Of a stretch of DNA of 64,000 nucleotides, positions 2,442-53,275 are shown one piece after another. Position numbers and translations under genes: made by a program. Each line of letters opens with the position of its first letter. Position 1 is the first letter of the stretch. Origin of the DNA: Gnetum montanum (taxonomy: Eukaryota; Plantae; Gnetophyta); the NCBI GenBank assembly GCA_015680685.1, contig MNCI01002555.1:691419-755418 (forward strand). The letters are read 5' to 3'. A model generated the notes under the pieces. It had not been told where the DNA came from. It was given only the letters and a program-made list of their open reading frames with translations, and made no database searches.

Positions 2442-2569
2442 CTGCTAATGAAATAGGGAGCTATGTCAGCAAGGGTGAGTTTTCTTCTTCTTCTTCTTTT
2501 TAAGGAATTGATTTTACATTTAAATGTAACCAATGGTACACCAAGGGTAGTTTACCATCATGCCTGGAT

Positions 2570-2660
2570 GTATGGCAGTTTAAGGCTGTACCGGGCTGGG
2601 GTGGCAGTTTAAGGCCATACCGGGCCATGAGTGGTAGTTTAAGGCCATGTTGGGCCATGC
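2570..2660. repeat. ~29-bp degenerate tandem repeat (GGCAGTTTAAGGCCAT core) at the RT-proximal end of the intron of C
   Basis: Three units visible. Confidence 0.7.
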
Positions 2661-3689
2661 GTGTGTACAAGAATTTGAAATTTTTTTTATTTTATATTTT
2701 TTTTTATTTTTAAGGTTTGGGCATTGATAAAAGAAAAAGGGGTCAATGTAACTAAAAGTAAATATGTTATTTTATTTTGTAATTTTTATATTATTTTATT
2801 TTTTATTTTAAAATTTTTACTTTTAAGGTGTGAGCATTTTACCTAGGAGGTTAGCGTCAAAACAACATGGTAAAGGCAATAAAAGTAATGCTTTAAATAT
2901 AATAAAATAAAGGGAGAGAATTAAAAAGGTTTGACCAGTAAAAGTAAAAGTCATTTCATCATTTTATAGTGTGAGTATTGGAAACCAGGCAACAGTGGCA
3001 GCATAAGCAAGGTGGGTAGTGTACAGCTGGCATTAGAGGTAGAATCAAAGTGTCTGCAGTAGTGTAGAGTGTCCCGGAGGGGACCGTGCCTAAGTACAAC
3101 ACCAAAATCTATAGCATTCGGAGCTAGATTTGTAGCTACAACGTCCAGATCTACAATGTACAGGGCAAAATGGGTAGAGGCAAACAAGATGAGGGTAAGG
3201 AAAAGAAGGAGGTGATGCTATCATTTTTGGAGGAAAGCGAGGAGATGCTTCAACACCTTCCTCAGCCCAGGATCCCTTCATGGATAGAGTCTGTGTGCAA
3301 GTACGCTCCTATTTCATATTTTATTCGTCTTTTCCTTGTTGTTTTCTGTTGCTATTTCCCTTTGTACAGCATAAACATCCCTGTACCCTGGGCGTTTACA
3401 GCATGTGTAAGAAACAGCCTATTTTGGGATGAATGTTTTCATGTGAATGGTGTCTTCTACGTGATTTAATTTCCTTAACACGAGTAGTTAATTTCTGAAC
3501 TACGTTTTTTAGGTGTATTTTATTTTTGTAGTTTTAGGGAGGGCTATGGTTTCTACTATTTTCTTTTGTTTACCCTGCCATGAATTGCAGGGTTTGCATT
3601 CCTAGTTTCAGTTGCAATTCCACTGCTTATACATGAGGGTTTTGAATGTCTATTTTTGAGATCGTGGAAGAAATAGAATAGCGTGAATA

Positions 3690-5020
3690 CCTATCCTTGG
3701 TTGTCTAGTGTGCATGTATGGCCCATAAATCATAGGTATTTCTTGGCTTAATTAGCGTGAGTTCATAGGCAGAATTATCATTGTTGTGCGTACAGGACCT
3801 CATGGCTCAAAGATCAACGTGAATGCGGTGGAAAGATTAACATTAGCATGAGTACAGGACTGAGCATTAGGGTGAGTGCATGTCCCAACATCAGCGTGAG
3901 TTCATAGAGTCAAAATCTGCATTAATAAGGGGCCAGAATTAGTGTGAGGGTAAGTACAAAACCATGGCAGCATGAGTTTATGACGAGTGAGTGAATATTC
4001 TAGCGTGAGTGTAAAATTATTGTTAGCATGAATATAGGCCTCATTCAGTATTAGCGTGAGTATGTGGGTTTTCACAAACCAGTGTGAATAGTTTGGCTTT
4101 GTTTCAATACTCAGCGTAAATTTTGGCTTTGTTTGCATACGTCATGTACGCCACGGTATGGCCAATGCACGGACTTGAACTGGGATGTATGCAAACACAT
4201 GGCCCTGCATAGAAATGAATTGAGATGTGCATACGGTACGGCCAATGTGCATAACTAAAATGGCTAGGAAACTTTAAGTTATGCAGTTTAGTTGTAATGA
4301 CCAAGTCCGCTAGCGTCCACCTTGATGCTCTTGCCAACCTAGGCCTCCTGCAATCTCATACGCATAATTGAACTAGGATGTATCCATGCACGAATACAAT
4401 TCTTGGTACTTAGGTCTCCTACCACCTAGAGGCCTTCTATTTTAGGGCTTTCATTTCATTGCGCATTATGATGACGGACTTGAAAAACATGTGGTTTTTT
4501 CCTAGCCTGACGTAAAGTATGATTAGTTTGGCTTTATTTGCATATGCCACGTGAGTGAATCGGGCTTCCTTAATAGCATGAGTGTGCTTTGGCCTTCCAC
4601 AATAGCATGAGTTTGCCCTGGCCCAACAGCTTGAGTGAAATATTCTGGCCTTATCGTGCCTAATTTCAGTATGCAACGTGAGCATGAGTTGTTGCCCTCG
4701 TTTCTATTGTAGTGTGAGTTGTTGCCTTCGTTTCTATTGCAACGTGAGTTGTTTCCCTCTTTTCTATTACAGCGTGAGTAGCCATCTTTATGGCCATGGG
4801 TATTGATAGCATGAGCTATTGTAGAACTCTATCAACGTGAGTTAGGCCTCAACTTGGCAGCATGGGCTATTGAACCAAAATCAGCATGACTTAGGCCTCT
4901 AATTTGGGTAGTGTGAGTGGTGGTATTGTTGTTGATACCCAGTGTGAGTATTTTTCTTCATACTCAGCGTGAGTTTCTGTACCCTTAGCATGAGTAGAGC
5001 CTTTTATTTTCAGTGTGAGT
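3690..5020. repeat. Dispersed array of (C)AGCGTGAGT motifs and their deaminated variants
   Basis: Dozens of AGCGTGAG/AGCATGAG/AGTGTGAG copies, spaced about 25-45 bp apart. Confidence 0.75.
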
Positions 5021-5345
5021 TTTGGTTTATTTTATCGCTACTCACTACCACTCTATGCGCCAAAGATTCACGATTCCGAAAAACTTTTCATGAACTGTTC
5101 GGGTCGGATTCAGGAGCATGGACAGAAGCGCAGTAAATTCGCAATGGGTACATATTTCATAATTTCCAATGAAATTTTGTCTATATTTGTACTTATACAT
5201 TGAAATGGTCACCTTGCATTAAAATCTTACATATCTTCTCCTATTCTGAATCATACCAAAAATTTCATTTCATTGTTAAGTGGCAAGCAAGCAATCAAGA
5301 TTCGTGGCATCAGCATGAGATAGATCATAGAAAACAAGGGATTAC

Positions 5346-6748
5346 TAAAACACCATAAAATTTTTGAGGCCTCGATGGTTCGGTGAAATCTAGCGACTCA
5401 GGTGAGGAGTCGCGACAAGGCACGACAAATGAACTTCAAGAGATAGAACAAAATGATGGGTGCATGGTGGTAAGCCTTCCACTTTGCGAGTTTTCTATGT
5501 CTCAAAATCTCAACATTCAACATATTACACTACATTACGCAACATAGCATAATGCTGCGTTATGCAGCATAATATCAAAGACAGTCAACCACGGCATCAA
5601 AGATGGCAAACATTCAAGACTCCAACAACCCAGCTCAAGGCTTAAGCAATGATCTGTAGCATGCTGCACATTTCAACAGGTTTTCTTTCCTATTTAAGGG
5701 GCCCATTATGCTGTGTTACACAGTGCGGCATAATAAAACCCTGAAAGGGATTGATCAGAAACAGAGGAAGCGCAGCGTCAATACTTCAATTTTTTGTGGT
5801 TTCGTTATTTTACGCTGAATCACGCTATGATGCGTAATGTAGTGTAACGCAGCGTAATACAAGTAATGACAGCATAATTTAGCCATCATTTAATTCATAC
5901 ACCACAATATGCTCTCTAGTGTATTGTGGTGTAATCAAAAGATAGTTTGTTGCCAGAGTCTAAACAATAGTGGTTCGCGACGCACTACACAGCATGGCAT
6001 CACAAGCTTAAGCGACAACACGTCAAGTCAACGACATCTTATAAGTTCAGGACACGCATCATCTAAACTGCATTTTTCTCTTGACCTTAACCTTATAAAT
6101 GCCCCAGTTGACAAAGATCAAAGGGTTGGCAAAAATTTCTCTTTCAAGGTTGGCAAGAGAGCAAAAAAGAGGACCAACGATCATGAGAACATCGGAGGCA
6201 ATTGGCAAGAACTCTTGATTAGAAACAATCGGCTACTAGATATTCTTCCTCGGGTCTCACTACCTTGCGCCCAGATTGGCTAGAACAAGGTAGATTGACC
6301 CTCGCTTGTTTCATCTTTAGATAACTTTCTTGCTATTGACATGTGCTTTGTCCAAATCGAAGCCCGCTTATAATCATTATATCCAACATGTTGTATTCAT
6401 AAATTAAATCCCAGATCTTGTGGTTGCACTCTCGCACTCTCTATAAATCTGATTCCTTGTGTCCTATTTATACAGATTTGGCAATTGCATCTGAATTATT
6501 TACATCATTTTCAATTTTTTTCGGGATTAACAATATTGCATCTCCTCTTAAAGACTTATCATTTTGCCATTAAACTATTGCAAAAAATTTTATTGATTAA
6601 CTAAGTCCCTATTTGATTGACAAGACCGTTCAGGGCACCTTGGATTAATTTCTTTCTCTAGCACTGCCCTCACATAGATCTGAGGTTAGAACTGTGTACA
6701 TGGACCTTCATTCGGTATTTCCAGTGACCGACGTTTTCTGTCATCATA
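5346..6748 (+). repeat. 5' LTR of element A
   Basis: Aligns end to end with 20297-21700. Termini are mutated (TG to TA, CA to TA). Confidence 0.92.
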
Positions 6749-7007: not shown

Positions 7008-10000
7008 ATGGTTACATCAACCACATCCAACCTAGAAAATCCCTAGACCATGCAAGTTACACTTCCGGTGGTCGAGCTTCCAACTAGTCCAACATGACAA
7101 TGTCGCTTCCTCAGGATCCAAAACAAAGAGCTTGAGGAACACGCTCAGAGAAAAGAACACTACAATTTCCTCTGTGCTAAGCTGGTGGCAAACCTACCCA
7201 TTTATCCATAAGAACTCGAGGAAAAATGAGAGTACAAGTTCATGTACTGCAACAGGAAGGAATTTATTCCTTCACCTAACACCAATGTGCCCTTGACAGA
7301 TCAACAAAAGTGGATCCTAGATCAAATGTTGATGGCAAAAACATTGCTAGGATAACTAGAGGTCTTGTTCCATGATGAAATGCTTCACGACGGGCAAGAT
7401 GATCTAGAATCTCACTCTGAAGGAGGTAGTCATGCTGATTTCACCATGGCTCCTCCCTCCACAATGTCCGGCATAAATCCGCTATTCATGGTTACCATGC
7501 CCCTAACACTATCCAATACCAATCAGCTCCTGCATTTGCCGTGCTTATACTTTCTTTCTTCAACTATCTTCCTGGGAGACGGTCCTTCACAGATCATTCC
7601 CCAGCAGGTACAATTACCTAATCCAACTCATCATACGCCTGCGCCTGTATCACCACATGTGCACACGATACCTACATCGCAACTACCTACAACACCAACC
7701 TTGCACCCAACCCACATGATGGAGCCTACCACCACAACATGATGGGCTCCCAACATGTCTCTTTTTGCCCATCCTGCATAAATGCATCATCATCCCCATC
7801 ATCAAAGTCAAGTCCCACAAGCGCTAAACCCAGCTACAGGATCACTGTGCATGCCCCCAATTACACAAACAACATACCCAATGGCACAACCGACGGTGGT
7901 TGCTCCATCAACACTAAGCACTGGATGGTGGATTCCACAAGCAACACTGCCTACAGGGACTATCCCGATGGCACTGACCATCGGCCAAGCTGCTGCCTCA
8001 ATTTTTCCACCCAATGTGGCTCCTCCCGCCGTTCCACAAATGACCTCATCATATACAGGTCTAGATCAAGCCTTCCAGCTCATTCAGACTCTTACAGGGG
8101 AGGTCAAGCATCTCAAGGCTGCTGGTTCTGATGCGGTATAAGTCATGGACTTCTACCATGACGATCCTATTAGTCCAGCAGTTTCAATGTTGTTGTTGCC
8201 ACCTGGGATGCCCCTTCCTCATTTCACAAAATACAATGGGGAAGGTGATCCCAACATCCACCTCATCACTTTTAGGTCAAATTCCTTATTGTTGCAACAA
8301 TGGCCACATACTATAATCCATGTCTTTGCTATGTCCTTAATGGGTAATGCTTTGGATTGGTATCGAGCACTTCCACGTGCCTCCATTTCAACTTTGGAAG
8401 AGCTGCTAACCCAGTTTGTGACTTGTTTCAAATACAACTTGAAGCCAGAAGTCACACTGGACTAGCTCATGGGAGTCAAACAAGACCTGCTCGAGTCGGT
8501 CCAAAAGTTCATACAGCGTTGGAGCCACCTTGAATGAGATCTGTGAACCCATCACAAAGGCCCATCTACTGGAAATCTTCAAGGAAGCAGTCAACGACTT
8601 TATCAAGTCTAAGCTATATTACCTCACTCCTCATTCCCTCAGCCAAGCCTTTGCTTAGACTAAGAGCATCCAAGATGTGGTGGAGGCTAGTAAAGATCTA
8701 GTGTATGTGGTCTACAAGAATGCCCATGGCAAGGGTAAGGACAAAGGAAAAGCTACTACAACGATAGTAGTGGCGGTTACTGAAGGGGCCAAGAAGAAAA
8801 ACAACAACAACAAGAAAACAACTGTAGAGCCAGTCGAGCTAACAACTAGCTCTGATGGTACCAATCAAGAAGCTCCTTCAACCCCCGGAGCACCTCCACA
8901 ACCAAGGCCAAAATTTGAGTGTAAAGACCACTCAAATTATGCATCTTTACCTATGAAGCCTTCAGAACTTCTGAAGCAATTACTGGGAACTGGTCACATC
9001 TGACACAAGGCTATGTTCAAGGAGGCTCTAAAACATCACAGGCGCCATTGTGAGTTACTCAAGAACCCCTCCTTGGCCCAAACTAATGAACTACCCATTC
9101 CCAAGAATTTTAAGCTAGACTGATTCTGCGACTACCATCAACTATGTGGTCATGACACGGATTACTGTTGGGCATTGAAAGATGAAATTCAACGTATGAT
9201 TGATCAAGGTGACCTGATCTTAGACAATAGTAGTCTAGCTCACCCAGAAAACCAAGCCATGCATGTGTACCAAGACTCATTAAATGTGAACAACGCAGGG
9301 TACACAATTAACGCAATAGGAGCAAAGGGTGATGATCAGGCGTAGCTGAAATAGCCTTTCATGTTGCGAACATATCCTCGCTCTCCCCAAATAATGGATC
9401 CATCAGCATCGGTGAGCAGTGCTCCAAGGAAACCTTTTATCCTTAGAGGCCTCTCCTAGAAAACTTCTAGACAGCCCCCTATCGGTAAAGCCGTGGCCCA
9501 GCCCGTGCCTACCCCTAAGGCTCCTTTTGTCATCAGGGTGTCAAAACCATTAACTTTCCCTCCTATTCAAGGGCACACCTCCAAGCCAATCTCCCGATCT
9601 CAACTTAACGAAAAAGGAGAAGAAAGGATGACAACTGGTACGGCCAAGGACTGTCTTATGCTGGGGTTTCCCAAGCCTAAACCCCTTCCTTCTATACCCT
9701 TGGCCCGATCTTCTAAAAATGGAAAAATTACATGAACGCAACCATCTCCTCCTAGCCAAAAGAAACATAGCCCTCGACTGAATGTCACTCCNNNNNNNNN
9801 NNNNNNNNNNNNNNNNNNNNNNNNNNNNNNNNNNAACCAAGGCCAAAATTTGAGTGTAAAGACCACTCAAATTATGCATCTTTACCTATGAAGCCTTCAG
9901 AACTTCTGAAGCAATTACTGGGAACTGGTCACATCTGACACAAGGCTATGTTCAAGGAGGCTCTAAAACATCACAGGCGCCATTGTGAGTTACTCAAGAA

Positions 10001-11693
10001 CCCCTCCTTGGCCCAAACTAATGAACTACCCATTCCCAAGAATTTTAAGCTAGACTGATTCTGCGACTACCATCAACTATGTGGTCATGACACGGATTAC
10101 TGTTGGGCATTGAAAGATGAAATTCAACGTATGATTGATCAAGGTGACCTGATCTTAGACAATAGTAGTCTAGCTCACCCAGAAAACCAAGCCATGCATG
10201 TGTACCAAGACTCATTAAATGTGAACAACGCAGGGTACACAATTAACGCAATAGGAGCAAAGGGTGATGATCAGGCGTAGCTGAAATAGCCTTTCATGTT
10301 GCGAACATATCCTCGCTCTCCCCAAATAATGGATCCATCAGCATCGGTGAGCAGTGCTCCAAGGAAACCTTTTATCCTTAGAGGCCTCTCCTAGAAAACT
10401 TCTAGACAGCCCCCTATCGGTAAAGCCGTGGCCCAGCCCGTGCCTACCCCTAAGGCTCCTTTTGTCATCAGGGTGTCAAAACCATTAACTTTCCCTCCTA
10501 TTCAAGGGCACACCTCCAAGCCAATCTCCCGATCTCAACTTAACGAAAAAGGAGAAGAAAGGATGACAACTGGTACGGCCAAGGACTGTCTTATGCTGGG
10601 GTTTCCCAAGCCTAAACCCCTTCCTTCTATACCCTTGGCCCGATCTTCTAAAAATGGAAAAATTACATGAACGCAACCATCTCCTCCTAGCCAAAAGAAA
10701 CATAGCCCTCGACTGAATGTCACTCCTCCCCAAGAAATTCGTGTCCTAGAACGAATGGAAGAGGAAAAGGGCGATAAGCAGCCAGATCATGGGCGGGATC
10801 TCTTCGACGCCTTTACACAAGTCAAACAGGCTCTAAAATAGAAAAATACAACATTGAGCCTTTATGACTTACTCATGACATCACAGAAACATCGTGAGGC
10901 TACAGTTCGCATGCTAACGTCCATACCCATGGATGAAAGCCTACTGGTGGATGAAGAAGCGATTCATTCCATTATGCTTCCTCTCGCAGCTGAGAAACCT
11001 AGGCCTTCCTTATTGATCTTCCACAATGAATCCATTAAGGATGACCCGAAAAAGGGTCAGGTGACAATGGCGTCCATGTTCATCACCATCTGGGTTGGCC
11101 AATACCGAATTCAGAGGGTGCATGTGGATGATGGGGAAACCACTAATGTCATCCCATATCCCATAGTGGATAAGCTAGGCCTAATCGATCAGATCATTCC
11201 TACCACGATGTCATGTTTAAAGTCATTCAACGGGGCACAAGTGCAAGTTAAAGGCACATTGCACATCAACTTTGTGGTAGGGGAACAGTTCCCCACAGAC
11301 GCGATGTTTATTGTCATCGAAGAGATTCCTGGTTTCAACTTGATCCTGGGGAGGTCTTAGCTGGCTCAACTAAGGGCAGTTTCATCACCTATCCATCGAG
11401 AAATCCATCTTCCCTACATAGGAAGAGAAGTGATCATCCACGGTGATGAAATAACCGCTCAGGCTGTTAACAACATAGAAACAGAACAGGGGTCAGAAAT
11501 TGAAATGTTTGAAGATCAGTCCCTTATCTGAATACTTGAACAAGCCAAAACAGTGGCTAATGATAGCCTAACTTGGGTTGAACTACCATTCCCAGAGGAA
11601 GAATGTGATGTGGAAAAAAAGGATCGTAAATCCCCTCGTCTTTATGCATCACTAAAAATAAAAGAGATCAAGAAGCAATTATAGGGCTAGCCA
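7008..11693 (+). pseudogene. gag: gag-protease of element A
   Basis: Capsid motif FTKYNGEGDPNIHL...ALDWYRALP; knuckle FCDYHQLCGHDTDYC; protease RVHVDDG...FNLILGR; many stops. Confidence 0.88.
8900..10726. other. Exact ~890-bp duplication flanking a 43-N gap (probable assembly overlap artefact)
   Basis: 8900-9791 is identical to 9835-10726 (offset 935), with Ns at 9792-9834. Confidence 0.85.
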
Positions 11694-11919
11694 GTAAGCT
11701 TGGTCATCTAACTGTCGTCCAGTTTACGTGTATTTTCTTTCATCATGTTATCACATCTTTGCTTTACAAACACTCATCTTATTTTTATGCTTACTCTTAT
11801 TCCTTGTGCTTCCACCAGCTGTTCTCATTTATGCTTATGTTTTTTACATTCCCACTAGTTATCTTGGTTATTCTTAACTTTATCTAAAAATTAATCATGT
11901 ATGCTTTGCACCTGAGTCC

Positions 11920-12380
11920 TCCATGGCCCGCAATGACCTTAAACTATTCAGGGCCCGAAACAGCCTTAAACTACCCATGGCCCGCAATGGCATTAAACTA
12001 TTCAGGGCTCGAAACGTCCTTAAACTACCCATGGCCCACAATGGCCTTAAACTATTCAGTGCCCGAAATGGCCTAAAACTAATCATAGCCTGCCATGGCT
12101 TAAAAATGGCTATTTAATGTTATTTATCCTTTCACACACCACATATGTCCAAAGCCCAAAATGACCTAAAACTATACATGGCCCAAAATGGCCTAAAACT
12201 ATCTATTTAAATCATAGTTTACGCCTGAACTAATCAAAGGCCTGAAACAGCCTAAAACTAGTTACCGTATTTATGCTTTACACCTAAATTATCTATTAGG
12301 TCGCAATGACTTTAAACTAGTAATTTCATTTACGCTACATGCTTAAAACTATCTGTCATTCCTTATAGCATCAAAACCTA
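11920..12380. repeat. 27-bp tandem repeat (AATGGCCTTAAACTATTCAGGGCCCGA) with alternating 54-bp higher-order unit, degenerating downstream
   Basis: Directly visible. Reverse-complement homolog at 50065-50620. Confidence 0.85.
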
Positions 12381-12509
12381 ATTATTTATGCTTTACATAA
12401 AATGAAAACAACAAAAGAACATTAACTTAGACCAAATTTGCATTAAAGTGTCAAAGAAAAATATTGTCTTTCCCATCATAAAAAATGAATTGTGGCTAGT
12501 ATCGCCACA

Positions 12510-15500
12510 CTAGCCATCTCCTTTGTCCCCACTATCACCTGTATCCCTAAGCTCAATCTCCACTCCGAGTAAATTGTCCTCATAGGGGCCACCTTTTTTA
12601 GGTGTCATTTCTTTGTGAAAATGTCCCTCACTACTAGGCTCTTCTATATGAGGTTGTTTTCCATGGTGTTTATTATCATCATTACACTCCATCCCCTGCA
12701 AACCCTCCTCATGAGGACCACCATCCACGTTGGGTTCATCTCACTGAGGAACCTCCTCAGGTCGTTCCTGCAATTAGACATAATACGCATATTGATATCG
12801 CGATCAAAACTAGGTATGATAAAAGGCATAATAAAACAAATTAGCTATGATGGTCCTACATCGGTAGCAAATGGGATTTGTTCTAAGCCAATCCACAGAC
12901 GTTGCATAATTTCATCCTCGGTAAGCTCAGACCAAACCCTGTCTCCTAGATTAGCTCCAGCCTTGACTTTTCCTTTCTCCACAAGAGTCCATCAGGGTGG
13001 TTCGGGGAAGAAGGAAGGGATGGTTGTCTCCCCTCCAAGAAGATCTATTTCTCATTCCAGAGAGGCACTCACCATCACTTGCTCCTGGAACTTTTCAAAT
13101 GCACTGGAAGCACCAATAACGTTGAAGAATAGTTAAAGAGACTAAGCCTCGATGGTAGAGTCCCTGTACTATTAACGATAGGCAGCGCATTCCTGCTTGT
13201 AGACATATTTATGGTCTTTCTACGTCTACCCCCATTCTTGCACACTTGCGCAAAAGTCCTTCCAATCTTGATTTTTTTGAGCCAGGAGATCCATTTGCAT
13301 CCGCTACTCAACTAGTTCACGGCTGGTTTGGATACTATTTTAGATGACCATCCAATAACGGGTGTAATCCATAACAGTTGTCTGCCAATCCTCGTTGCCT
13401 GTCCCCTGAGCTTGCAGGAATTCATTCCGCAACCTCAAATCCCCCACTTCATCTCCTAGAGCCGTCCTCTCTTTCTCCAACCTTTACAATCTCTTCCAAA
13501 GATTTTCATTTACACTTTGACATTCCCACAAGGAGCGGGTCGAGTGTACCATACATTTACACATGTCTTCGTAAATGCTGCACGGCACGACGGATGCTTC
13601 CTATGAGGGTTCATCGGTGTCTAAATCAATAGGCTCTGATAGATCCCATATGAGTCGAGCTCCTAATAACATAAGATAGTGGTTAGGTGTAATTAGGTAC
13701 CATAGTATCACGATGGAGTAACTTTTGCATAATGATCATGGTGTACCCACTTCAGGATCGATTTGCTCCATGCAACTGATCATATCTTGGACGACCCCCT
13801 CCATAAATGTGAATTTATCAGGAAATTCACCCCAAGACTGAGTCGTCATTGTTGACAAGTGTACGTCCTGGTCACCTATTATGCAAAACAAGCTCCGTAT
13901 GAGAACATAATTGAAACATTACAATGACCAATATAACCTTTAGAAGCAATTTCCTAGAGTCGAATATGTCATAAAAGTTAGCCTTACAGAGTCACCAATT
14001 ATTTACCTCCTCTTGTCTGGGCCGAAAGGACATCAGCATCTTCCACTGCTGCTCCCTTCTCATGCATGAGAACCTGTGCACTGCTTGTCATGTTGACCAC
14101 AGCCTCTTCTTCCAAGGCCAAGGCCTCTTCCTCACACCGCAAAACCATAGCCCCTGTTTCAGGGATTAACCTTTCCATAACCTTCTCCTTCGCTATCACA
14201 TAATGTTCTCAGTTAATACAGAATTTTGGCTCTAGTTTAGTACATTACGACATAAGATTGTCTATACCCAGCATAACTGTAATCATTATCACATTCTTTT
14301 TCTTAACTGCTGGAGGATTAGTGCTCCGAAACTTGACTTGCATCCTCTGCCTCGCACCACTTGCTGGCTCGCCAGACTCCTCGGTCAAACAAGGCTTCAT
14401 CCGGGGCACCGACAAGTCCACTATCTCATTTGCCAAGTGCTTCTCCCTTGACACATCACTAGTATAGGAATGGAGCACCCCACCCACATTGTCTTGACCC
14501 TGCGTTTGAGGTGCTACCATGTTTTTAGTCATTACTGACAATGACTCCCCGATTCCTTCAGGAGGGTCCTGCGACCAGACAGTGTCAAAGATATGGGAAA
14601 TCCATGGTTTAGAAATCTAGTTGTGGTCCTGCTGCACCCAGACTCCATTCCTTTGGACCACCAGAAACTTGGCAAAGCACTGGAAGCAAGCTATGAAAAA
14701 AGGAAAAATGCATGTTGAAACAGGACTCAAGCTTCTTGCAAAGCTTGACCATTTCAATGCGCAGGCCTTTGGCAAAATAGTTGGCCCAATTGAATTACGT
14801 CCCCTCCTCCATGACCTCTCACATAATGCGAGCTTGCTCTATGGTGAGGAATCTCCCTTGGGAGAGTGTCTTGGGGAAGGCCCGGGCTCAAAAAAGAGGG
14901 TAAATAGTGTTGGCCACGTCCAACTCAATCCCTTTGGCAGGAATTCCTTTGGATTTCTTCCGAGCCCCTAGCCACTCCTCTATCTCTTCCTGGTACTTGG
15001 AGCTCCTCTTTGACTTTTCCTCTATAGGAAAGCCATCAGAGGGGACCTTGAAGATATCGGCAAACAGCTGAGCGTCGATGTCAAAATTTACACGTATGTT
15101 ACGCACACATATGTAGAGACGCTCAGCTTCTTTGTTAAAGGAGTTGAATAAGGTCAACATCTCACCCACAGTAGCATTAGAGGTTATGGCCAAGAATAGG
15201 TCCATTAGTCCAACCTCTCAAAGGTTATTGGTCAAAACAACTGGGGGGCTCTATGGCCGAGCCAACGTTGTGCCTCCTTTATGTCACTGTAGCAGAAAAA
15301 GATATTGCTTGCATCACGATCGGAAGCCATGATCGTAATTTTCCATGATTCCTTGATTGCACACATAAAACAATAGCTAAGACAAGATAGAAAAAAATAA
15401 AATAAGACAACTTCACACATCATCACTAGCTAATAACATTGACACCATTCATCATCACAACGAAGTTTACCAGGTTCGAATGGCAAAGGAAATGAAGGGA

Positions 15501-16935
15501 TTTTCCTTTGCATGTTGATGACAGTGAGGGGAGGATCCAAGGTCCATTCTTTATCCAACCATCTGATATTTTTACATCTAGCAAAGAAGTCAGCATAGTG
15601 GGTTGGGTATTCTGGAATTTCAAATGCTAGTTGTTCCATGATAGCGGCCCGCACGTTGCTAATAGCAGTAAACTCGCCTAACGCCCTTTTAGTCAATGAC
15701 AAGGTATCATTATCGTCCAAGAGACCGTTGTCATTGATGAAGAATCTACATTATAGAAAATGGGCAAATTCTTTACGCTCAACATAAATTTAAACAATAG
15801 TTAGCGCATTGACATACATCAAAACGATAAAAACTTAGATTCTTACCCGCCAACGTAATACACGGTACCAGGTGGGTTCTAGAAATAGGTTGTGAGGTAA
15901 CAAGCCACAAACAGAGTATTGTAGGAATGATAGCAATTGAATCTAGGAACCTCCCAGATCCAACTCAAATACCTCAAACCTTTGGCGCTTTGTTCACGGT
16001 CTTGCACCCGCGTAGTCTCAATCTTGTCGTCCATTAAAAACCCCAAGACGCCCTGTGTTGAACCAGCCAGTAGCATCTCCAAGATAGCCGCAGCTACATC
16101 ACCTGGTAGATGCAACTAGATGATTATGCTGTAGTTACAAAGCAGAAACTGCAAGAACCCTCATGTGCCCCTTCGGAACCACACCGCCTCCCCCTTTATA
16201 CGAGCATGAGGAGGAGGAACATTGGCTATGGGGACATGCATGCAGCAGAGAACCCCCATGATGTCCAAAATGATTAGGATGGGCTTTAACATAATACTAT
16301 ACAGCAAAAAAAAAATTACAATTAGGTAGAACATTTAGACATGAACCAGAACATTTATACATGCTAAATTAAGGTTTTCCTGATTCCCCGAAAACTATAG
16401 GTTCCACCAAAAACGCATAGCCAGAATTGCCCAAACCCTTGCAACAGCTCAAGGTTTGTCTTTGACAATGGCGATGAAAGCGAAACTGTGTATTTTTCCA
16501 ACATAACATGTAACCGTTATGGGAATAAAGGAAAAGAAAACAAAACCATGATTATACTATCCACCAGCTATAATACCTAGTCTCTTCAATTATACACGAC
16601 ATTCGCTCAGTCTTACTCAAGGTTACCTAAATCCTCATAACGATATGAGGTTCATCTCCAATAGTGAAGATGGAGGTAATATCGCAAATCACAACAACTC
16701 AACCCGTGTAAACAAACATCTACGATCAACGCAACATACACATTCATGGAAATAACACACAACCATGACACCAAAACAAATATAACAATAGTGTGAAAGG
16801 CTAGACGATGACTTATCGGTTCAGCAAAGTGACTTCTCGAGCCTCGACTCTTGCCTGTGAAGCCTGCTGCAATCTCTCTTGCACTTCATTGATCCTTGCC
16901 AGTTTAGCATTCTTCCCCTTGATCTTTGGTGTCAT
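12510..16935 (-). pseudogene. Antisense 8-exon gene of element A (FCP1/NIF-like, PMD/Transposase_32-like, coiled coil, acidic tail)
   Basis: Exons ~16817-16935, 15847-16296, ~15430-15745, ~14306-15357, ~14005-14193, ~13750-13875, ~12846-13663, 12510-12767. Homologous exon by exon to 45604-49936. Confidence 0.75.
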
Positions 16936-17513
16936 AGTTGCAATCGAATGAGTTTTCACAAAACCCTCTATTTATGCCTTGCTTCTGCTCCTGTTCTGCT
17001 ATAGCCAAAATCAAAATTTGTGATATCTGTAACCCATTTCAAGTATGAACCATTGGTTTATAAAAAAAATTCTTGAAACTGATTTCTCTTTCTGCCCAAT
17101 CGATGTGGAACTTTCCTGAAACGCCGGTGTTAGTATGACATGAAACGCGAAGATCAAGGCATTAATTTCGTAGATATCGTGTAGATTGTGGTCCAAAATG
17201 ATCCTAAACTAATACATTTATCATCTTGTAATCCGGCCTCATTAACTACAGTTTGTATAGAAATTCAAATTTCATGACACGCTAGACATGCCACGTTTCA
17301 CTTTTCATCTTATTTCATATGCCAGCATCTAGGAAGTCGAACTCGTTATTGTTTTATGAACCAAGCATATTTGTAACGGTACACTAAGATCTTAAACTAG
17401 AAGCCTCTTTAATATATAACCCTGATGCAACAAAAATAGAAACAAACTCTTGTCGTTTACAGATTGGCAGAAAAACAATGTAACAACCTCCTTTTTTATT
17501 GGCATTTTTGCAG

Positions 17514-18678
17514 GATGATTCACAAAAGGATGCAGCGCGCAAGCGTGCCAAGCAATACATCATCATTGGAGACAGTACTCTCTGTAGATGCTCCTTTGAT
17601 GGGGTATTTCTCACCTGCATCAATAATGACCAAGCATGATGGATAGTTAGCAAGGTCCACGAGGGGCTGTGTGGGGGACACGTGGCCCCATGAGCCATGG
17701 CCGCTAAAATCAGACACCTAGGGTACTATTGGTCGTACATGGAAAGAGATTGCCTTATCAAGGTTAAGACATGTGATATGTGTCAACGTTACGTAAACCT
17801 AATACACGTGTTACCAACTGAGTTACACATTACTCATATTACTTGGCCATTCCAACGATGGGGACTGGATATCATAGGTCTCATCACACCTAAATCTTCC
17901 GTAGGACATAGCTTCATTATCACCGCCACCGAGTATTTTACAAAGTGGGTTGAAGCTATCCCCCTATGAAAGATTACATCTCAGTAGGTTTGCCATTTCA
18001 TCCTAGACAATATTGTAACCAAATTTGGGCTCCCTATGACTATTGTGACTGACAACAGGCCATAATTTAGTAGCACAGAAACCAAATCTTTTTGCGATAA
18101 CCTTGGTATCAAGCAATATTTTTCTTCACCTTATTACCCGCAAGCAAATAGTCAAGAAGAAGAAAAAAACAAGGTAATTATCAATCTACTTAAGAAGATG
18201 GCATGAAAAAATCCTCTACGTGCTATGGGCGTATCGTACAATGTGCAGAACAGCCACAGACAAGATGCCCTACAACCTAGTCTACAGATCTGAAGTAGTG
18301 TTGCCCTTGGAATTATAGGTTCCCTCATTACGGATGGTCCTATCTATGATTATAAATGAGACTCAACACAATGAGTCTAAAATCATGGATTTAGACTCAG
18401 TGGAGGAGAAACACATCCAGACGCTCGACATCATTGAAAGATATCAAGATAAATAGAGACAGAAGCATCAGCACAACCTGCATCAATGACCAATCAAGAA
18501 AGGAGATTTAGTTCTCAAGGCCGTTCGTGAACCAGTAGGCAAGTTCTCTGCAAACTAGCAAGGCCTTTTCCTAGTCATCAACATATATGGCAACAGAGCA
18601 TTCAAGTTAGTGGATATCGATGACAACAAGTTATCAAATCCAGTAAATCATCTGTATTTGAAGTAGTACTACATCTAA
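17514..18678 (+). pseudogene. Integrase of element A, directly after the pol splice acceptor
   Basis: HHCC region (VHEGLCGGH...CDMCQ), WPFQRWGLDIIG, TEYFTKWVEAIP, IVTDN, and C-terminal GPF motif. Confidence 0.9.
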
Positions 18679-18707
18679 AGATCAACTTGGTTCAAACGCA
18701 AGGTAAC

Positions 18708-20296: not shown

Positions 20297-21700
20297 TGAA
20301 ACACCATAAAAATTTTCGAGGCCTCAATGGTTCGGTGAAATCTAGCAACTCAAGCGAGGAGTCGCGACAAGGCGCAACAAATGAACTTCAGGAGACAGAA
20401 CAAAATGATGGGTGCACGGCGGCAAGCCTTCCACTTTGCGAGTTTTTTATGTCTCAAAATCTCAACATTTAGCATATTACGCTGCATTACACAACATAGC
20501 GCAACACTGCGTTATGTAGCGTAATATCAAAGATAGTCAACCACGGCATCAAAGATGGCAAACATTCAAGACTCCAACAACCTAGCTCAAGGCTTAAGCA
20601 ACGATCTGCAGCATGCTGCACATTTTAGTGGGTTTTCTTTCCTATTTAAGGGGCCCATTATGCTGTGTTACACAGTGTAGTGTAATAAAACCCCAAAAGG
20701 GATTGATTAGAAATAGAGGAAGTGCAGCAAAAATATTTCAATTTTTTGCAGTTTCGTTATTTTACGCTGAATCACGCTATGATGCATAATGTAGTGTAAT
20801 GCAATGTAATACAAGTAACGGTAGCACAATTCAGCCATCAGTAATTCATACGCCACAATACGCTCTCTAGCGTATTGCAGCGTAATCAAAAGATAGTTTG
20901 TTGCCAGAGTCCAAACAATAGTGGTTCGCGACGCACTACACAGCATGGTGCCGTAAGCTTAAACGACAACACGTCAAGTCAATGGAATCTTATAAGTTTA
21001 GGACACGCATCATCTAAACTGCATTTTTCTACTAACGCTAACCTTATAAATGCCCTAGTTGATGAAGATCAAAGGGTTGGCAAAAATTTCTCTTTCAAGG
21101 TTGGCAAGAGAGCAAAAAAGAGGACCAACGATCATGAGAACATCGGAGGCGATTGGCAAGAACTCTTGATCAGAAACAATCGGCTACCAGATATTCTTCC
21201 CTCAAGTCTGACCGTCTTGCACCCAGATTGGCTAGAACAAGGTAGATTGACCCTCACTTGTTTCGTCTTTAGATAACTTTCTTGCTGTTGACATGTGCTT
21301 CATCCAAACTGAAGCCTGCTTATAATCATTGTATCCAAGATGTTGTATTCATAAATTAAATCCCAAATCTTGTGGTCGCACTCTCGCACTCTCTATAAAT
21401 CTGATTCCTTGTGTCCTATTTATATAGATTTGGCAATTGCATCTGAATTGTTTACATCATTTTCAATTGTTTTCGGGATTAACAATATTGCATCTCCTCT
21501 TAAAGACTTATCATTTTTCCATTAAAATATTGCAAAAAATTTTACTAATTAAGTAAGTCCTTGTCTGATTGACAAGACCGTTCAGGGCACCTTGGATTCA
21601 TTTCTTTCTCCATCACCACCCTCGCACAGATCTGGGGTTAGAACTGTGTACATGGACCTTCGTTTGGTATTTCCAGCAACCAATGTTTTCCGTCGTCACA
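20297..21700 (+). repeat. 3' LTR of element A
   Basis: TG...CA termini; matches 5346-6748. Confidence 0.92.
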
Positions 21701-23249
21701 AGTACAAATAAATAAACAAACATTTTGGTAACCGAAGGCCGAGGGGGCAAGTATGGATCATACGAAAATCAAGTTTTGGATGGGGCGTGTGAGGAAAACA
21801 TTTCATTTTCATGGATTCGTCTACCTTTGGAAGCATCAAAGGTTCTGCCACAACTCGCACATTCACGCGTGTTTATTGTTCATTGCTAGTTTTTGCTCTT
21901 TTTCTCATATCTCTACTGAAAAAAGAAAAAACAATACAGGGTCATTATCATGGGTTATGAGTCATGAACATGATGATGGATGGATGCTTGTTCAACTATT
22001 TTAAAATTTGTTTGCTTATAAAGCAACGAATCCCACTAGCACATGGCCAATGGCCATATGCAAGCTCATGATGCTCCGTTTTTACTTTCCCCTTCATCAT
22101 GACTAGTGCCGATTTTTCAGCATCTGAAAAGTTTTCGATCATTGTAGGTGAGGTGAGTTTGGGGACCAAGCCCCTCCCCAACGCATTTTGTAAAATATTT
22201 GTAGGTGCTCCTAGTATTAATTTTTTTAGATACGAATGGTAAACTAGCTATTACAGAGGACCTGGTAAATTTAGGAGCCTAATGTCTTTGGTTAATCAAA
22301 TTAATATAGACCTTCGCTAACCAGGTCTCCAGTGCTTACGAGGGTGTGTGAAAGCTAAGTATAAATTTCTTCTAAGTGTCCAACATGTCAAGTTGGCAAC
22401 GTATGAATACTGAAAATTTGTCTAAGTGTCCAGCGTGTTAAGTATGCACTTAAGTGTTAGTGTAAACTGTTATCTATGAATAATTTACATGTTTATATGC
22501 ATTCAAGTATATCTCATCCACTGGGGAATTATTTTGTGTTTGAAATATGGGTTGGTATCAGTTTTAAGTCATAATTCCAGGACTAAGTGTGGTGTCAGTT
22601 TACCGTCATGACGCCAGGACATAAGTGTTATTTATGTTTTAAGTGGTGGGTTGGGTATGATGTCAGTTTATCATCTTAACTCCAAGACGTCTCCTTCATC
22701 TATAAGTATTTTGGTCTTGTAACTCTATGAATGTTTTTGTCGTTTTCCATTTAATTCTTTTATTGTTTTCCATTTAATTCTTTTTTATATATTTGCTAAT
22801 TAGTTGTTTTCTATTTTGTGCTTTCTATTTTTTGAAGGGACATGATGATGATGATGGTGGCCCCAGTGGAACAGGACTTGATGATGTGGATGAGTTTGGG
22901 GATCAAGACCCTCTTAGTTATGTTTTTTTTTTTTGTGTTGAAATTTTGTGGATTGTATGAAAGAAAATGTATGATGTTAACATTTGATATTATCCATTAA
23001 TACATTTATGCATTTTTTTTTATGTTATTCAAGTTTTTTTTTCTTTTAAGATTTTTCCAAACTTTTGATAAACACAAGTGTAAACACAAAAGATTTATTT
23101 TTCGTTTTGTTGTTTTAATGGTTTGTAAATGTGAAAGTAACTGAAATGATAATAGTGTAGAAGAAATGTAAGTGGAATAGTAATTTGTAAAGCAAGGATG
23201 CAACTATGCATGCAGACAAAGAATGTAATTTTAAAGAAATAGAAGTCTA

Positions 23250-23470
23250 ACTTGTTCTAGTTTAAGGCCATTTCGGGCCATGCATATCAATTTAAAGTCA
23301 TGAAGGGATTTAGCAATGACGTTCTAGTTTAGGGCCATTTTGGGCTACAAGAAAAAAAGAGGGATTTAAACTATTTCAATGGGTTTTAAAATGAACCGGC
23401 CATTCCTGGCTATGGCTAGTTTTATGTCATTGTGGACGTGTAGTAGTTTAATGTCATTTTGGATGTGTAG
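23250..23470. repeat. Degenerate GTTTAAGGCCATT-type repeats at the PR-proximal end of the intron of C
   Basis: Same core as the repeats at 11920-12380 and 50065-50620. Confidence 0.6.
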
Positions 23471-23475
23471 TAATT

Positions 23476-26400
23476 TTAACAGTTGAGTAGCTTCTTTAAT
23501 TTTTGAAGATTGACATGGTATGTCAGGCATGTCGATGTAATCGTATATTCTATGTCTCCTTTCCTAATTATGTTAAATGATAATTCTGACTGTGAGACGT
23601 CTAGGGGAATGACCCCTATGTCAGCATGCTCTGAAGTTTCTACATTTTGTAATGTTTCTATATATTCTAGGGGATCACAGTTTGGAGATTGATTATCATT
23701 TTGTTTGTCAATGGGTATGGCATCCTGTTTAAGCTCGAGAGTAGTGTCACGATGTTTAGGCTTATCGAATTTGACCTCTAAGCCTTGGTTTGTGTCTATG
23801 TGCGATGGAATGTTAGATGTAACCACGTCACCATGTATAATTATTTCACCGCCCTCGTAGGGTAGGTGAATCTCTTGGTGGATGGGTGAGGATACCGTCT
23901 TTAATTGGGCTAACTATGATCATCCCAATATCAAGTTAAATCCAGGCATCTCATCTACGACTACAAATTCAGCTGACGTGGGGAATCGGTCCCCTGCTAT
24001 GAAATCCAAAGTTAGTGTTCCTTTGACAACTACGTGTGATCCACTGAACGATTTCAAGAATGTCGTGGAAGTTGGTTTGATTTGTTCAGTTAGCCCTAAC
24101 TGTTCGATGATGAGGTATGGTACTATGTTCGTGGCTACTCCGTCATCTACATGCACCCTATGTATTTCAAATTTATTTACTTGTATAGTTATGAACATGC
24201 GTGCAGTGGTGACTCCTATTTTTTCATCTACTTTTATATTATCCGCGTTGAAGCCTAGTGATGTAGCTCTTGATCCTTGATATGGAGACATTACTGCATG
24301 AATGGAAGGTTCATTTGTAGACAAGTCTTCGCTGACTAGGATTGATGTTAATGTGCATACTAAGGCTTCATGATGAACTTGAGAAGTCATCATTAGGTCA
24401 TACAAGCTTAAAGATGCGTTTTTTTGTTTAAGCACCTTTGTGACCTGGGCTAGGACATTGGCCAAGTCTTTACTATTTGGTATTCTATTGTTGGTTGAGA
24501 CTTGGTCCATTAGACCCAACAGTTGTATCTCTTGTGGAATGGTTTTCATGTGGTCTAATGTGACGGTTGGGTGTGATGTATCTGGCATTCCTGATTTTTT
24601 ATTTTTGTGGCTCGTGCTTGGCTTGTCAGTTGTTGGAGCTATAGGTACAACATTTAAGGGAGTGGGTTTCGATGGCCCCAATTCAAGACTTTAACATTCT
24701 CTTTCCAACCATTCCCTAGTAAGTCTATCGGCAAGGCATTCTTGCGAAGGTTGTGGGGGAACCATTGGAGCTTGAACAACAGGTTGTTTTGGGACCTGGA
24801 TTATGAATGGAGTGGGTTAGGGTTGTGGTTGAACAGTTGGAGGAGGTTGTGTGTCAGGATGTTTAGGCACCCTAATGATGAATGGGGTCAGTTTGGTTTG
24901 AGGTTGAGGAGTAGGAGGTTGAAGATTAGGGTGTTTGGGTATTCTGATTACGAAGGGAGTTGGTCGGTTTTGTGGTTGTACCTCCGTGGTCGCAACCGCG
25001 GGTGGCACCCGGACCAAAAAGGGAGTGGGCCAGGTAGGCGATTGCACATTTGCGGTTCCATTGGTAGGGGGTACATGAATGAAAAATGGTTTTTGAGGTG
25101 TAGGCAGATTGTATGTGGGATACAAAAGATTGTGGGGATGATGTTGATGTTGTAGGAGGAACATGAATCACGAAAGGTTTTTTGGGCATTCATTGCTCAT
25201 TTTTTATATGGATCGTGTTAATAACGTAAGGAGCTTCCTTAGTATTAAGGGGATCTTTGTACACACCCATAGATTGATTCTGCATTTTAACAGGGTTGGC
25301 ATCGTCAAATCTTATTTCACCCCTATCAATCATACGTTGTATGTCTTGTTTGAGGGTGAAACAATAATCAGTACCATGCCCATTTTGTTGATGGTTCTCG
25401 CAAAATCAATCTAGTCTAAAGCCTCTTAGAATAGAAGCCTCATTTGGAGTTTCCAAGCTTGGGTTTTTGACCAATTCACAGAATCGGTCATGCCTCTGGG
25501 CTTCCGCTGGAGACAACTACTTATGATTAATGGCCCCAGCCTTCAAAAGTTGATCTAACAACTAGGAAGGCTTAATGGGGAGCGGTGTGTATTGAGTGGG
25601 GTCTTTCCTCTCAAATGTATGTGCATGACTCATGTTAGTAGCTTGCGTGGTAGATGGTTCAGGTGTGTGTGAAGGAGCGGTTCTCTCATAGTTAACGAGG
25701 GCAGTAGGTGGTCTGCCTTGCTGTCCCATGTTGGTAGGTTGAGTCTTTGCTACTGCTGCTACTATTGCTTTAGCCTTTTTTTTATCTTTTTTAATGTGTT
25801 GATTTTTGAAGGCTAAGTAAGTAGGGTCATGGCTATTTTGGGCTACCTCTTCTATGGTTTTAATCTATACAAAATCTTGGCTTAGAGTGCGCACATTTAG
25901 ATAGTACAGTTTTGATTTGAAAAAATCATTCATGGCTCCCTTAAGAATCGTAAGAAGGTATGTTTCTGGGATTGGCTCATGAAGTTCCTTGAGCATGGCA
26001 CTCCATCTTTGGATAAAGTTTTGTATAGGTTCAAGTGGTGCTTGTTTTACCTGTATCAAACTATCCAAGGTTGCTTCAAGTTTTAAGTTGTATTTAAACC
26101 TAGTAACAAACTGGTGTAAGAGATCCTCTAAAGAGAATATGGAGTTACGAGGCAAGGCTCGATACCAGTCTAATGCTCTACCAGTGAGGGACATGGCAAA
26201 CACATGCAAGATTGCATGGGGCCAAGCCTGAAGCAATAGGCATTCTAGTCTAAATGTGACTAGATGGGCATTGGGGTCTCCTTCCCCATTGTATTTGGTT
26301 AGTTGAGGCAAAGAAACTCCTTTGGGCAAGGTTAATGGTGGTACCAAAGAGCTAATATGATCATCTTGGTAAAATTATAATACTTTAAGCTCTTCATTGT

Positions 26401-34109: not shown

Positions 34110-34490
34110 ACCCAGTTTAAGGTCCTAGTAGACCACATGCTGTACTATTTTAAGGTCCTAGCAGACCGCAAACCTAGTTTAAGATCTTGGCATACTATGA
34201 TGTGCTAGTTTATAGTCCTAGCAAACTATCGTGTGCTAATGTAATGTCAAAGTGGATGGTGGATATTGTGCCAATTTAATGTCATGATGCAAGGATGTGG
34301 TGTGCCAATTTATAGTCATAGTGAACTATGCTATGGATGCCAATTTTAGTGTCATGGCCCAAAAACTTCTTGTGTCAGTTTATAGTCATAGTAGACTATC
34401 TATGTCAATTTAATATCATAATGGATGCTATGTGTCAATTTAACATTGTAGCAAATGCTATGTGCCAATTTAACATTGTAGTATATGCTT
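34110..34490. repeat. 3'-UTR tandem repeats of D (~30 bp, CCAATTTAA/AGTTTA core)
   Basis: Directly visible immediately downstream of the integrase stop. Confidence 0.75.
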
Positions 34491-38159: not shown

Positions 38160-38300
38160 ACAGGCCATGGGTGCCAGTTTAAGGTCATAGCAAACAATGG
38201 TTTGTCAGTTTAAGGTCATAGAGAACCATGGTTTGCCAATTTAAGGTCATAGTGGACCATGGTTTTCTAGTTTAAGGTCATAGGAGACCATGGTTTATGA
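38160..38300. repeat. 29-bp tandem repeat (CCATGGTTTGCCAGTTTAAGGTCATAG core) upstream of the pol acceptor of D
   Basis: 4-5 units visible. Confidence 0.8.
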
Positions 38301-41490: not shown

Positions 41491-41519
41491 TCTTACTTGA
41501 GTTTGAGCCTAGTCGATGC

Positions 41520-44500: not shown

Positions 44501-45018
44501 AATGAAACTAGCCTAATACAACTTAGTGATTTCATTATGCACTACTAGCGCAATTTCCAGCTTAATTTTTCATGCCTTCTGTCTAATTGGTTTGATGTGT
44601 GGGTCTAAGATTATGTTGTGCTGTATTAATCTTGGGTTTAAGCCTAGCATGTCTTCATATGTCCACGCAAATACAGCAACATTGTTTTGGAGAACTAGTG
44701 TTATGTCACTTTGCATCTATTGGTCTAGGAGAGAACTAACCCTAAGAGTTTTATTTTCACCCTTGTGCGTAACCACAGGGACCTCGCTAAGGGGATCCTC
44801 AGTTACATCACCAACCTCCAGGTCAAGTGTTCGAGCCAGATGTTCTGGCCAGTCTAGAGATGTTTCTAATGTTGCTATGGTTACATCATAGAGGGAAAGG
44901 TTTGTTCCTACTAGCGTGTGATTGAACTATCAAGACTAAGGGTGTGGATAAAGCACCTCCCATGTGGCCCTGTCAAGACTAAGGGTGTGGATAAAGCTAC
45001 ATCCATTTGCGACTGGCC
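41520..45018 (-). pseudogene. pol: pol (RT-RH-aRH-INT) of element B
   Basis: RT FMDDFSGYNQI/YVDD (43970-44476); RH PIYYVSHAL; aRH LYFDGAS...NNMVEYEGL...NAIADALA; INT 41520-42700. Confidence 0.92.
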
Positions 45019-45603
45019 CTGCAAAAATTGCCAAAAATGGAAGTTGTTACATTGTCTTTCTACCAATATGTTGAATGATAAATGTTTGTTTTATTTTTGC
45101 ATCAGAATCGCGTGTCAGAGAAGTTTCCAATTTAAGGTCTTAGTGGATGGTTACAAATACGCATAGTTAGTAAAAAGAAATTACTAGCTAGGCTTCCTAG
45201 ATGCTAGCGTATGAAATAGGATGAAGGGTGTAACGTGGCATGCCTAGTGTGTCGAAATAATTGGATTTGAAATTTTGTATAGACTTAAGTTAATGTGACC
45301 AGATTATGAGGTGATAAGCTATGTATTAGTTTAAGGTCATTTCGGACTGTAACTCACGCGATATCTACGAAATTAATGCCCTAATCTTCACGTTCCATGT
45401 CATACTGACACCATCATTTTGGGAAAGTTCTGTGTCGATTGAGCAGAAAGAATCAGTTAGTTTCAAGCATTTTGTTTATAAACCAGTGGTTCATACTCTA
45501 AACATGTTACCGATATCACGAATTTGGATCCAGCTATAGCAAGAAGGAAGCGTAAGCAAGGTGTGAGCGGACGACTTTACGAAGATTTTGTTCGATTGCA
45601 GCC

Positions 45604-49936: not shown

Positions 49937-50064
49937 CATGGCTGAATTAGCCTTGGGTTTTATTGTGGTGTAATGAAACAAGAGACAATATTTTTCTTTT
50001 AACGTATTTGATATAGATTTTGGTGTTAATTTTGATTGGCTTCTTTGTTGTTAATTTCGGGTCT

Positions 50065-50620
50065 TGAATAGTTTAAGGCCATTTTGGGCCCTTGCTATAT
50101 GAGTGAGTGAAGGAATCAAATAAACATTAATTCACCAATTTTAAGCTATGGTAGGTTGTGATTAGTTTTAGGCCATTTCGGGCCATGGATAGTTTAAGGC
50201 CATTTTGGGCCCTGGATAGTTTAAGGCCATTTCAGGCCTTGAATAGTTTAAGGCCATTTCGGGCCCTTGCTATATGAGTGAAGGAATTAAATAAACATTA
50301 AGTCATTGATTTTAAGCTATGGCAGGTTGTGATTAGTTTTAGGCCATTTCAGGCCATGGATAGTTTAAGGCCATTTCGGGCCCTAGATAGTTTAAAGCCA
50401 TTTCGGGCCCTGAATAGTTTAAGGCCATTTCGCACCCTGAATAGTTTAAGGTCATTTTAGGTCCTGAATTTAGGTACAAAGCACAGACAAAATTTAGATA
50501 TAAGGTGTAAACTAGATTCAGGTATATAGCATAAATGAATTTTGGGTTGTAAGCATCAACAAAATTCAGATACAAAGCGTAAGTGAAATTGCTAGTTTAA
50601 GGCCATTTCGGGCCTTTTGA
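50065..50620. repeat. 27-bp tandem repeat (GTTTAAGGCCATTTCGGGCCCTGAATA) plus a ~180-bp local duplication
   Basis: Directly visible; homolog of 11920-12380. Confidence 0.85.
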
Positions 50621-53158: not shown

Positions 53159-53165
53159 GTTCTTT

Positions 53166-53182
53166 TGGCGCTAGAAGGAGGG
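53166..53182 (+). promoter_or_regulatory. tRNA-Asn PBS of E (TGGCGCTAGAAGGAGGG)
   Basis: Perfect 17-nt complement to the plant tRNA-Asn 3' end, 7 nt after the LTR. Confidence 0.9.
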
Positions 53183-53275
53183 CTGAAAATTAAGCCTCTA
53201 GGTTCATAAGCCTTATACTTTTAGTACATCAACAATTATTTGTAAGGCTTAAGAATTAGATACTATTTTCAGTTC

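Follow-up and report, generated by a model that had tools for sequence, protein, structure and literature searches.

A conserved antisense gene with eight predicted exons between protease and reverse transcriptase in Ty3/gypsy retrotransposons of Gnetum montanum

Two copies of an antisense gene

The stretch of DNA analyzed here, referred to as the window, comprises 64,000 nucleotides (nt) of Gnetum montanum (GenBank assembly GCA_015680685.1, contig MNCI01002555.1, positions 691,419 to 755,418 of the forward strand). It is a nest of decayed Ty3/gypsy elements (CG observed/expected 0.43) with Pfam matches to gag, RVT_1, RT_RNaseH, rve, and Integrase_H2C2. Two of these elements carry, antisense to their own coding direction, copies of one multi-exon gene, which is the subject of this work: element B, around the copy addressed by an initial annotation of the sequence, and element A. 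Comparison of the window with itself matches 12504–17536 to 44996–49942 in reverse orientation at 73% identity, and copy B (minus strand) was aligned globally with copy A. Copy B extends on the minus strand from an ATG at 16935 to a stop codon ending at 12510, copy A on the plus strand from 45604 to 49936.

Both copies fit a single model of eight exons (3,285 nt, about 1,094 codons), the intron phases of which hold one frame. In copy B (minus strand throughout) these are exon 1 (16817–16935; 119 nt), which starts with the ATG and encodes a basic peptide, exon 2 (15847–16296; 450 nt), exon 3 (15471–15745; 275 nt), exon 4 (14307–15356; 1050 nt, with two single-base frameshifts), exon 5 (14007–14192; 186 nt), exon 6 (13747–13875; 129 nt), exon 7 (12845–13662; 818 nt), near the start of which leucines at seven-residue spacing were recognized by eye, and exon 8 (12510–12767; 258 nt), which encodes an acidic tail and ends in a stop common to A. 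The exons of copy A (45604–45722, 46209–46658, 46746–47020, 47097–48147, 48261–48446, 48575–48703, 48788–49605, and 49685–49936, plus strand) have the same lengths except for exon 4 (1051 nt) and exon 8 (252 nt). Alignment and exon lengths therefore bear out the initial annotation, which had taken the second copy to confirm an eight-exon antisense structure with exons 1 and 2 of 119 and 450 nt in both copies.

Canonical splice sites are present at 10 of 14 positions in B, where the donors of exons 1, 4, and 7 and the acceptor of exon 4 are broken, and at 12 of 14 in A, which has a GC donor in addition; none of the 14 is broken in both copies. The exon 1 donor reads AT in B and GT in A, the exon 2 acceptor AG in B and AA in A, just as had been described for sites broken in one copy and intact in the other. 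The sites were chosen partly by this very test, so the absence of doubly broken ones is not independent evidence. Independent support for the exon borders comes from composition and from the distribution of insertions and deletions (indels). Introns (76–520 nt) contain 60–71% A+T and exons 53–54%. Gap events number 6 in exons (1.8 per kb) and 21 in introns (20 per kb), an 11-fold difference in rate (p=7e-9), and five of the eight exons are free of indels.

Identity between A and B is 76.3% in exons (2500/3276) and 69.5% in introns (723/1040; Fisher p=1.7e-5). Introns 2 and 3 show exon-like identity (76%), exons 5 (69%) and 8 (68%) intron-like identity, and, at 77%, the 565 non-coding nt that precede the ATG are level with the exons. 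The identity gap is thus modest, and the strong contrast lies in the indel rate; the earlier statement that exons are conserved while introns diverge holds well for indels and in attenuated form for identity.

Purifying selection

Selection was assessed on the A–B alignment, excluding every codon with a stop or a gap as well as 31 bases of exon 5 that contain a compensated gap. By the method of Nei and Gojobori (NG86), the rates of nonsynonymous (dN) and synonymous (dS) substitution are 0.176 and 0.769, and dN/dS is 0.229 (bootstrap 0.19–0.28). Because transition bias lowers the neutral expectation, the neutral ratio was measured by shuffling: it amounts to 0.50–0.79 in 30 of 30 shuffles of exon columns and to 0.59–0.91 in pseudo-codons made from introns. 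The effect is present in every exon (8/8, p<0.03). The gene frame holds 4 stops shared by the copies, one being the terminal stop, versus 17–49 in the other five frames. Internal stops number 22 in B and 16–17 in A, with 3 common to both where 2.5 are expected by chance, and the parts of the gene past the first shared internal stop still give dN/dS of 0.26 and 0.23.

A signal of this kind might in principle stem from a mutation bias due to methylation, or from constraints acting on the sense RNA, with no antisense protein at all. Transitions do predominate, a low ratio (0.31) is likewise seen in the mirror frame of the sense strand, and transversions alone, taken without CG/CHG sites, show no selection (35/1147 vs 6/146, p=0.45). 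On the other hand, the mirror frame contains 30 shared stops, the five indel-free exons do not fit this reading, and neither codon periodicity nor a 3' extra open reading frame (eORF) is found in the non-coding 3' region by the same codon test. The contrast between 0-fold sites (118 of 1147 differing) and 4-fold sites (41 of 146) also persists when CG/CHG sites are removed (ratio 0.29, p=3e-8). This explanation is largely refuted, and we regard it as very improbable.

The integrase of the two elements offers a yardstick. Its dN/dS between A and B is 0.227 (0.17–0.34), level with that of the gene. At codons prone to C-to-T stops, 17 and 12 of 82 sites are stops in the gene and 7 and 7 of 28 in the integrase (p=0.61 and 0.25). 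Stop density being alike, the gene seems to have died with the integrase, after insertion, and its decay probably began no earlier than that of each copy as a whole. The codon comparison without CG/CHG sites, the ratio well below both 1 and the shuffled range, and a stop density no higher than in the integrase support the initial proposal that purifying selection acted on the gene before each copy died.

The synonymous distance between A and B is larger in the gene (12510–16935; 0.77) than in the integrase (17546–18680; 0.46), which could reflect recombination between subfamilies or stronger constraint on the integrase RNA.

The host elements

Element B consists, on the plus strand, of a 5' long terminal repeat (LTR; 5348–6747), a motif resembling a primer binding site (PBS) that follows at 6755, a gag-protease region (8061–11693; gag Pfam PF03732, E=5.6e-5, protease recognized by motif only, with no Pfam match), the antisense gene, the integrase (INT; 17514–18680), and a 3' LTR (20299–21699). 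In element A, the antisense gene is followed by pol (41500–45018, minus strand), in which a sense acceptor at 45018 precedes reverse transcriptase (RT), ribonuclease H (RH), archaeal-type ribonuclease H (aRH), and integrase, and then by an LTR. The aRH of A, located after RT_RNaseH, matches RVT_3 (E=1.3e-4) and archaeal RNase HI models (E=1.8e-8); it is deleted in B. Gag and protease (PROT), the latter again by motif only, are separated from RT-RH-INT by a spacer in B, in A, and in a further element of the window, D. A PBS-like motif is shared by three elements; in Ogre, the PBS is complementary to tRNA-Arg.

Two surveys give the layout of Ogre elements as GAG-PROT:intron:RT-RH-aRH-INT (PMC6317226; PMC4408406). 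An aRH between RH and INT, together with a protease attached to gag, marks the Ogre/Retand part of the Tat clade in these sources. By domain order, LTRs, and gag, we assign the present family to the Tat clade (Ogre/Retand type) of Ty3/gypsy elements.

The LTRs of B are identical at 1267 of 1398 positions, corresponding to a Kimura two-parameter (K2P) distance of 0.10. This lies far below the synonymous distance between A and B, so B retrotransposed long after the A/B split and carried the gene when it did. A target-site duplication, which measures 5 bp in Ogre, was not seen around its LTRs (5346, 21699); B may be a recombinant, or its flanks may have been rearranged.

The 5' part of element A is cut by another element. 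This is a plus-strand LTR element (50832–54073, with a near-identical PBS motif at 53166), which interrupts A near the end of its protease; gag and 5' LTR of A were not found within the 64-kb window.

In B, RT, RH, and aRH are missing: the sense acceptor is joined to the integrase within about 25 nt, in frame and at a microhomology. A template switch in the course of reverse transcription would leave a short microhomology of this kind (17514–17545). The deletion could be limited to this copy, or it could date from its last retrotransposition or later, and two sequences cannot date selection to the time after RT loss. The initial remark on retention of the gene in an element without RT is therefore accurate as a description of B, but does not count as evidence of selection.

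Further copies exist in sequencing data. In DNA run X1, 83–97 contigs carry another letter at each of four listed gene sites. DNA runs under four organism labels in three studies contain part of the gene, two of eight run entries with small shares, and no RNA run is among the listed runs that contain part of it. The many diverged contig copies and the runs under four labels point to a multi-copy family.

A predicted sense intron around the gene

The position of the gene within the element is unusual, since it lies between protease and RT and within a predicted sense intron. In B, this putative intron spans 11694–17513 on the plus strand (5,820 nt, from GTAAGC to TTTTTGCAG), with both of its ends in phase 0. 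The protease frame closes with a donor-like site at 11693. An acceptor (YAG followed by G) stands just before pol in four of four related elements of the window; its phase is 0 in A, B, and C, the elements in which splice motifs and phases fit. The acceptor is conserved in all four even though pol identity between distant element pairs is only 62–66%. It is thus likely, as far as splice motifs can tell, that the gene resides inside the element's own protease–RT intron.

Alternatively, the gene could be real and selected while the 5.8-kb spacer stays unspliced, with pol expressed from its own promoter or from an acceptor-only subgenomic RNA. The spacer is about 20 times longer than the Ogre mean of 274 bp, the donor, which misfits in element D, is less well supported than the acceptor, and in RNA runs of the same species label, at low depth, no joint across the spacer was found. 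The agreement in phase 0 between the donor at the protease end and the acceptor before pol in B, and the persistence of the acceptor across distant elements, argue against this alternative, which we consider quite improbable. If the spacer is a true intron, splicing would strip the sequence complementary to the antisense transcript from the pol message and genome RNA would retain it, which constitutes a testable switch between translation and packaging.

A 27-nt tandem array lies in the 5' part of the predicted intron of B (11921–12105), and the same array is found in A at 50054–50469. Related arrays of 27–31-nt units with a AGTTTAAGG core occur in the protease–RT spacers of four elements (2573–2663, 11921–12105, 38165–38296, and 50054–50469); they are possibly a conserved cis signal. 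Similar tandem arrays are located after the integrase at 34174–34489. At the other end of the predicted intron, the stretch that separates the gene's ATG from the sense acceptor (16936–17513) is a candidate region for antisense promoter and branch point.

Origin of the gene

A gene of this structure might also have entered the spacer a single time, as a nested DNA transposon (MULE, CACTA, or Helitron) or by capture from the host, and have been a passive passenger since; the selection would then date from before capture or have acted at the source. Division into several exons is typical of the genes of DNA transposons and hosts. Two separate captures or an exchange of cassettes could produce the higher dS of the gene relative to the integrase. 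Elements C and D have the acceptor and no detectable copy of the gene, although only D is informative because the spacer of C is interrupted. PMD eORFs of Tat elements are, moreover, described as related to MULE PMDs (PMC4408406). Against passive carriage, A and B hold the gene at the same position with flanks that can be aligned through the tandem array and the acceptor, and the selection seen between A and B hence acted inside the element. Pfam scans reveal no transposase domain in the gene, and no long terminal inverted repeat flanks it. An origin from a DNA transposon or host is compatible with a selected gene of the element; passive carriage alone is contradicted, and we consider this explanation unlikely as a whole.

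Features of the encoded protein

Exon 2 had, before any search, been presumed to resemble the FCP/SCP (NIF) phosphatases of the haloacid dehalogenase (HAD) group. The only match of exon 2 of copy A in the PDB at E≤10 is UBLCP1 (E=1, residues 46–144), which we take to be a member of the FCP/SCP group; the match is lost when intron 2 and exon 3 are added to the query. Pfam and NCBIfam give no phosphatase match for this exon. The catalytic motif of FCP/SCP phosphatases is DxD(x)T. At the corresponding position, B reads DIM and A reads NIM, so that the second aspartate is missing in both copies. An FCP/SCP-like HAD domain in exon 2 is a lead for and against which the odds seem about even, and such a domain, if real, would probably be inactive.

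No homologue was found in Pfam (six-frame and exon translations), in NCBIfam, or in searches of a protein database, which compared exon 4 with longer (902 candidates) and near-length proteins (564) and exon 2 with longer ones (390), yielding nothing significant; exon 7 and shorter lengths were not searched, and this lack of homologues is weak evidence of absence. Exon 4 may bear a likeness to PMD-type motifs. With decayed single exons as queries, neither PMD (PF10536) nor TRP28 (PF04195) matched at E up to 1–5. Two single-sequence AlphaFold models reached a confidence (pLDDT) of 37.5 and 43.8, too poor to judge the phosphatase lead, and three fold searches gave no fold match (best Z 3.9).

PDB matches for exons 2+3, 4, and 7 (E 0.1–1) are mutually unrelated and were dismissed as chance. 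Two metagenome loci among 95 pattern matches were likewise rejected, both being the reverse strand of a bacterial methyltransferase-like gene.

A possible mechanism

Based on this dataset, we consider it quite probable that a Tat/Ogre-type Ty3/gypsy family carries a selected antisense gene of eight exons, likely within its protease–RT intron and likely encoding a helper protein for multiplication of the element. Sense RNA driven by the LTR would have two fates, as shown for Ogre. In the spliced RNA, the 5.8-kb intron would be removed together with the whole gene, and gag-protease would be joined in frame to pol; being nested in this intron, a gene of 4.4 kb would not interrupt gag-pol. Unspliced RNA would be packaged and reverse transcribed, passing the seven small introns on to new copies. 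Inheritance of antisense introns follows from the way LTR elements replicate: the genome RNA is the sense strand, and the splice sites of the gene's introns are on the other strand, so that the introns survive reverse transcription.

The antisense transcript would probably start within the 570 conserved nt that separate the sense acceptor from the ATG. Once spliced, it would encode a protein of about 1,094 amino acids with a basic N-terminus, a probably inactive FCP/SCP-like HAD domain (a weak lead), a globular domain, the leucine heptad, and an acidic tail. Our tentative guess, drawn by analogy with gene23 of Grande elements and held with rather low confidence, is that this protein may be a nuclear accessory regulator that favors unspliced genomic RNA or counters silencing by the host. 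In a more daring version, which seems doubtful, the gene in the intron would encode a domesticated pseudo-phosphatase of the fold of RNA polymerase II carboxy-terminal domain (CTD) phosphatases, acting on host transcription or splicing to spare unspliced genome RNA; RT-less derivatives of the B type would then be a non-autonomous subfamily that retains the gene together with a gag-protease-integrase spliced in frame. A recognizable host-derived domain would make the function of antisense accessory genes accessible to testing.

Several observations weigh against this model. Besides the transversion test, the lack of homologues, and the unstable UBLCP1 match described above, only two copies can be aligned, and the exon borders were picked partly to preserve the frame. 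A stop codon terminates exon 7 in A as well as in B, and two further stops are shared, though the count fits chance. On the sense strand, the donor is a motif call, GTAAGC in B and the aligned GTTAGC in A, and in element D its phase disagrees with that of the acceptor. Four RNA runs show no splice joint over the gene (551 reads, 485 of them less than 90% alike; mean depth mostly below 10), and in another read mapping the joints seen (15 of 291) all came from DNA contigs. Strand assignment of the reads lacks calibration: the gene, gag, and integrase have the same orientation in run X9.

Comparison with other retrotransposons

Among known cases, the brtn gene of Boty elements in Botrytis (PMC8365987) resembles the gene described here in its antisense location on an LTR retrotransposon. 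It is reportedly spliced as well. Unlike the present gene, it is fungal and is not known to be nested in a sense intron.

The present elements share with Ogre the protease joined to gag, the spacer before RT, the aRH between RH and INT, the large size, and non-coding tandem repeats (PMC6317226). Ogre spacers between GAG-PROT and RT measure 274 bp on average, and the intron is spliced out of a subset of transcripts; eORFs are listed there solely upstream of gag or downstream of pol (21% 5'F, 6% 3'F, 60% 3'R) (PMC6317226). In contrast, the spacer described here measures 5.8 kb and contains the eight-exon antisense gene, and the 3' region lacks a coding signal.

Antisense additional open reading frames (aORFs) between pol and the 3' LTR are documented as gene23 of Grande, in RIRE2, as TRP28 of Retand, and as eORFs with PMD and coiled coil (PMC7264820; PMC11963269). 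For gene23 an antisense promoter has been shown, and its product is nuclear (PMC7264820). They resemble the gene in being antisense, family-wide, conserved like gag-pol, and coding for an orphan protein with a likely coiled coil. They differ in their place, the present gene lying upstream of RT and INT, in its seven predicted introns, and in its lack of a match to PF10536 or PF04195. The same papers describe open reading frames and urge a search for spliced antisense transcripts (PMC7264820; PMC11963269).

Ogre-related elements of orchids carry an ALKBH-like RNA demethylase reading frame (PMC9289625) and likewise retain an additional enzyme-derived domain through rounds of replication. Unlike the gene in the window, with its weak enzyme-like lead and without the second aspartate of DxD, the orchid frame keeps its catalytic residues, and gag-pol is a single open reading frame there.

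In the literature examined, no antisense gene with several exons was found described for the region between protease and RT; an earlier description is possible, as the large element table of PMC6317226 was not covered. Relative to these sources, antisense accessory reading frames 3' of pol are known already, and what is new here is that the gene has eight exons, lies between protease and RT, and is likely nested in an intron of the sense strand.

Further observations

Element D (2442–5345 and 21700–23480) has a protease–RT spacer of about 4.7 kb without this gene. The spacer holds a short antisense open reading frame at 3128–3469 with a possible donor near 3298, and it may contain a different, small spliced gene. 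In the gag region of B, a repeat of 892 nt with 100% identity (8900–9791 and 9835–10726) flanks a gap of 43 N; it is almost certainly an overlap left by the assembly and no true duplication.

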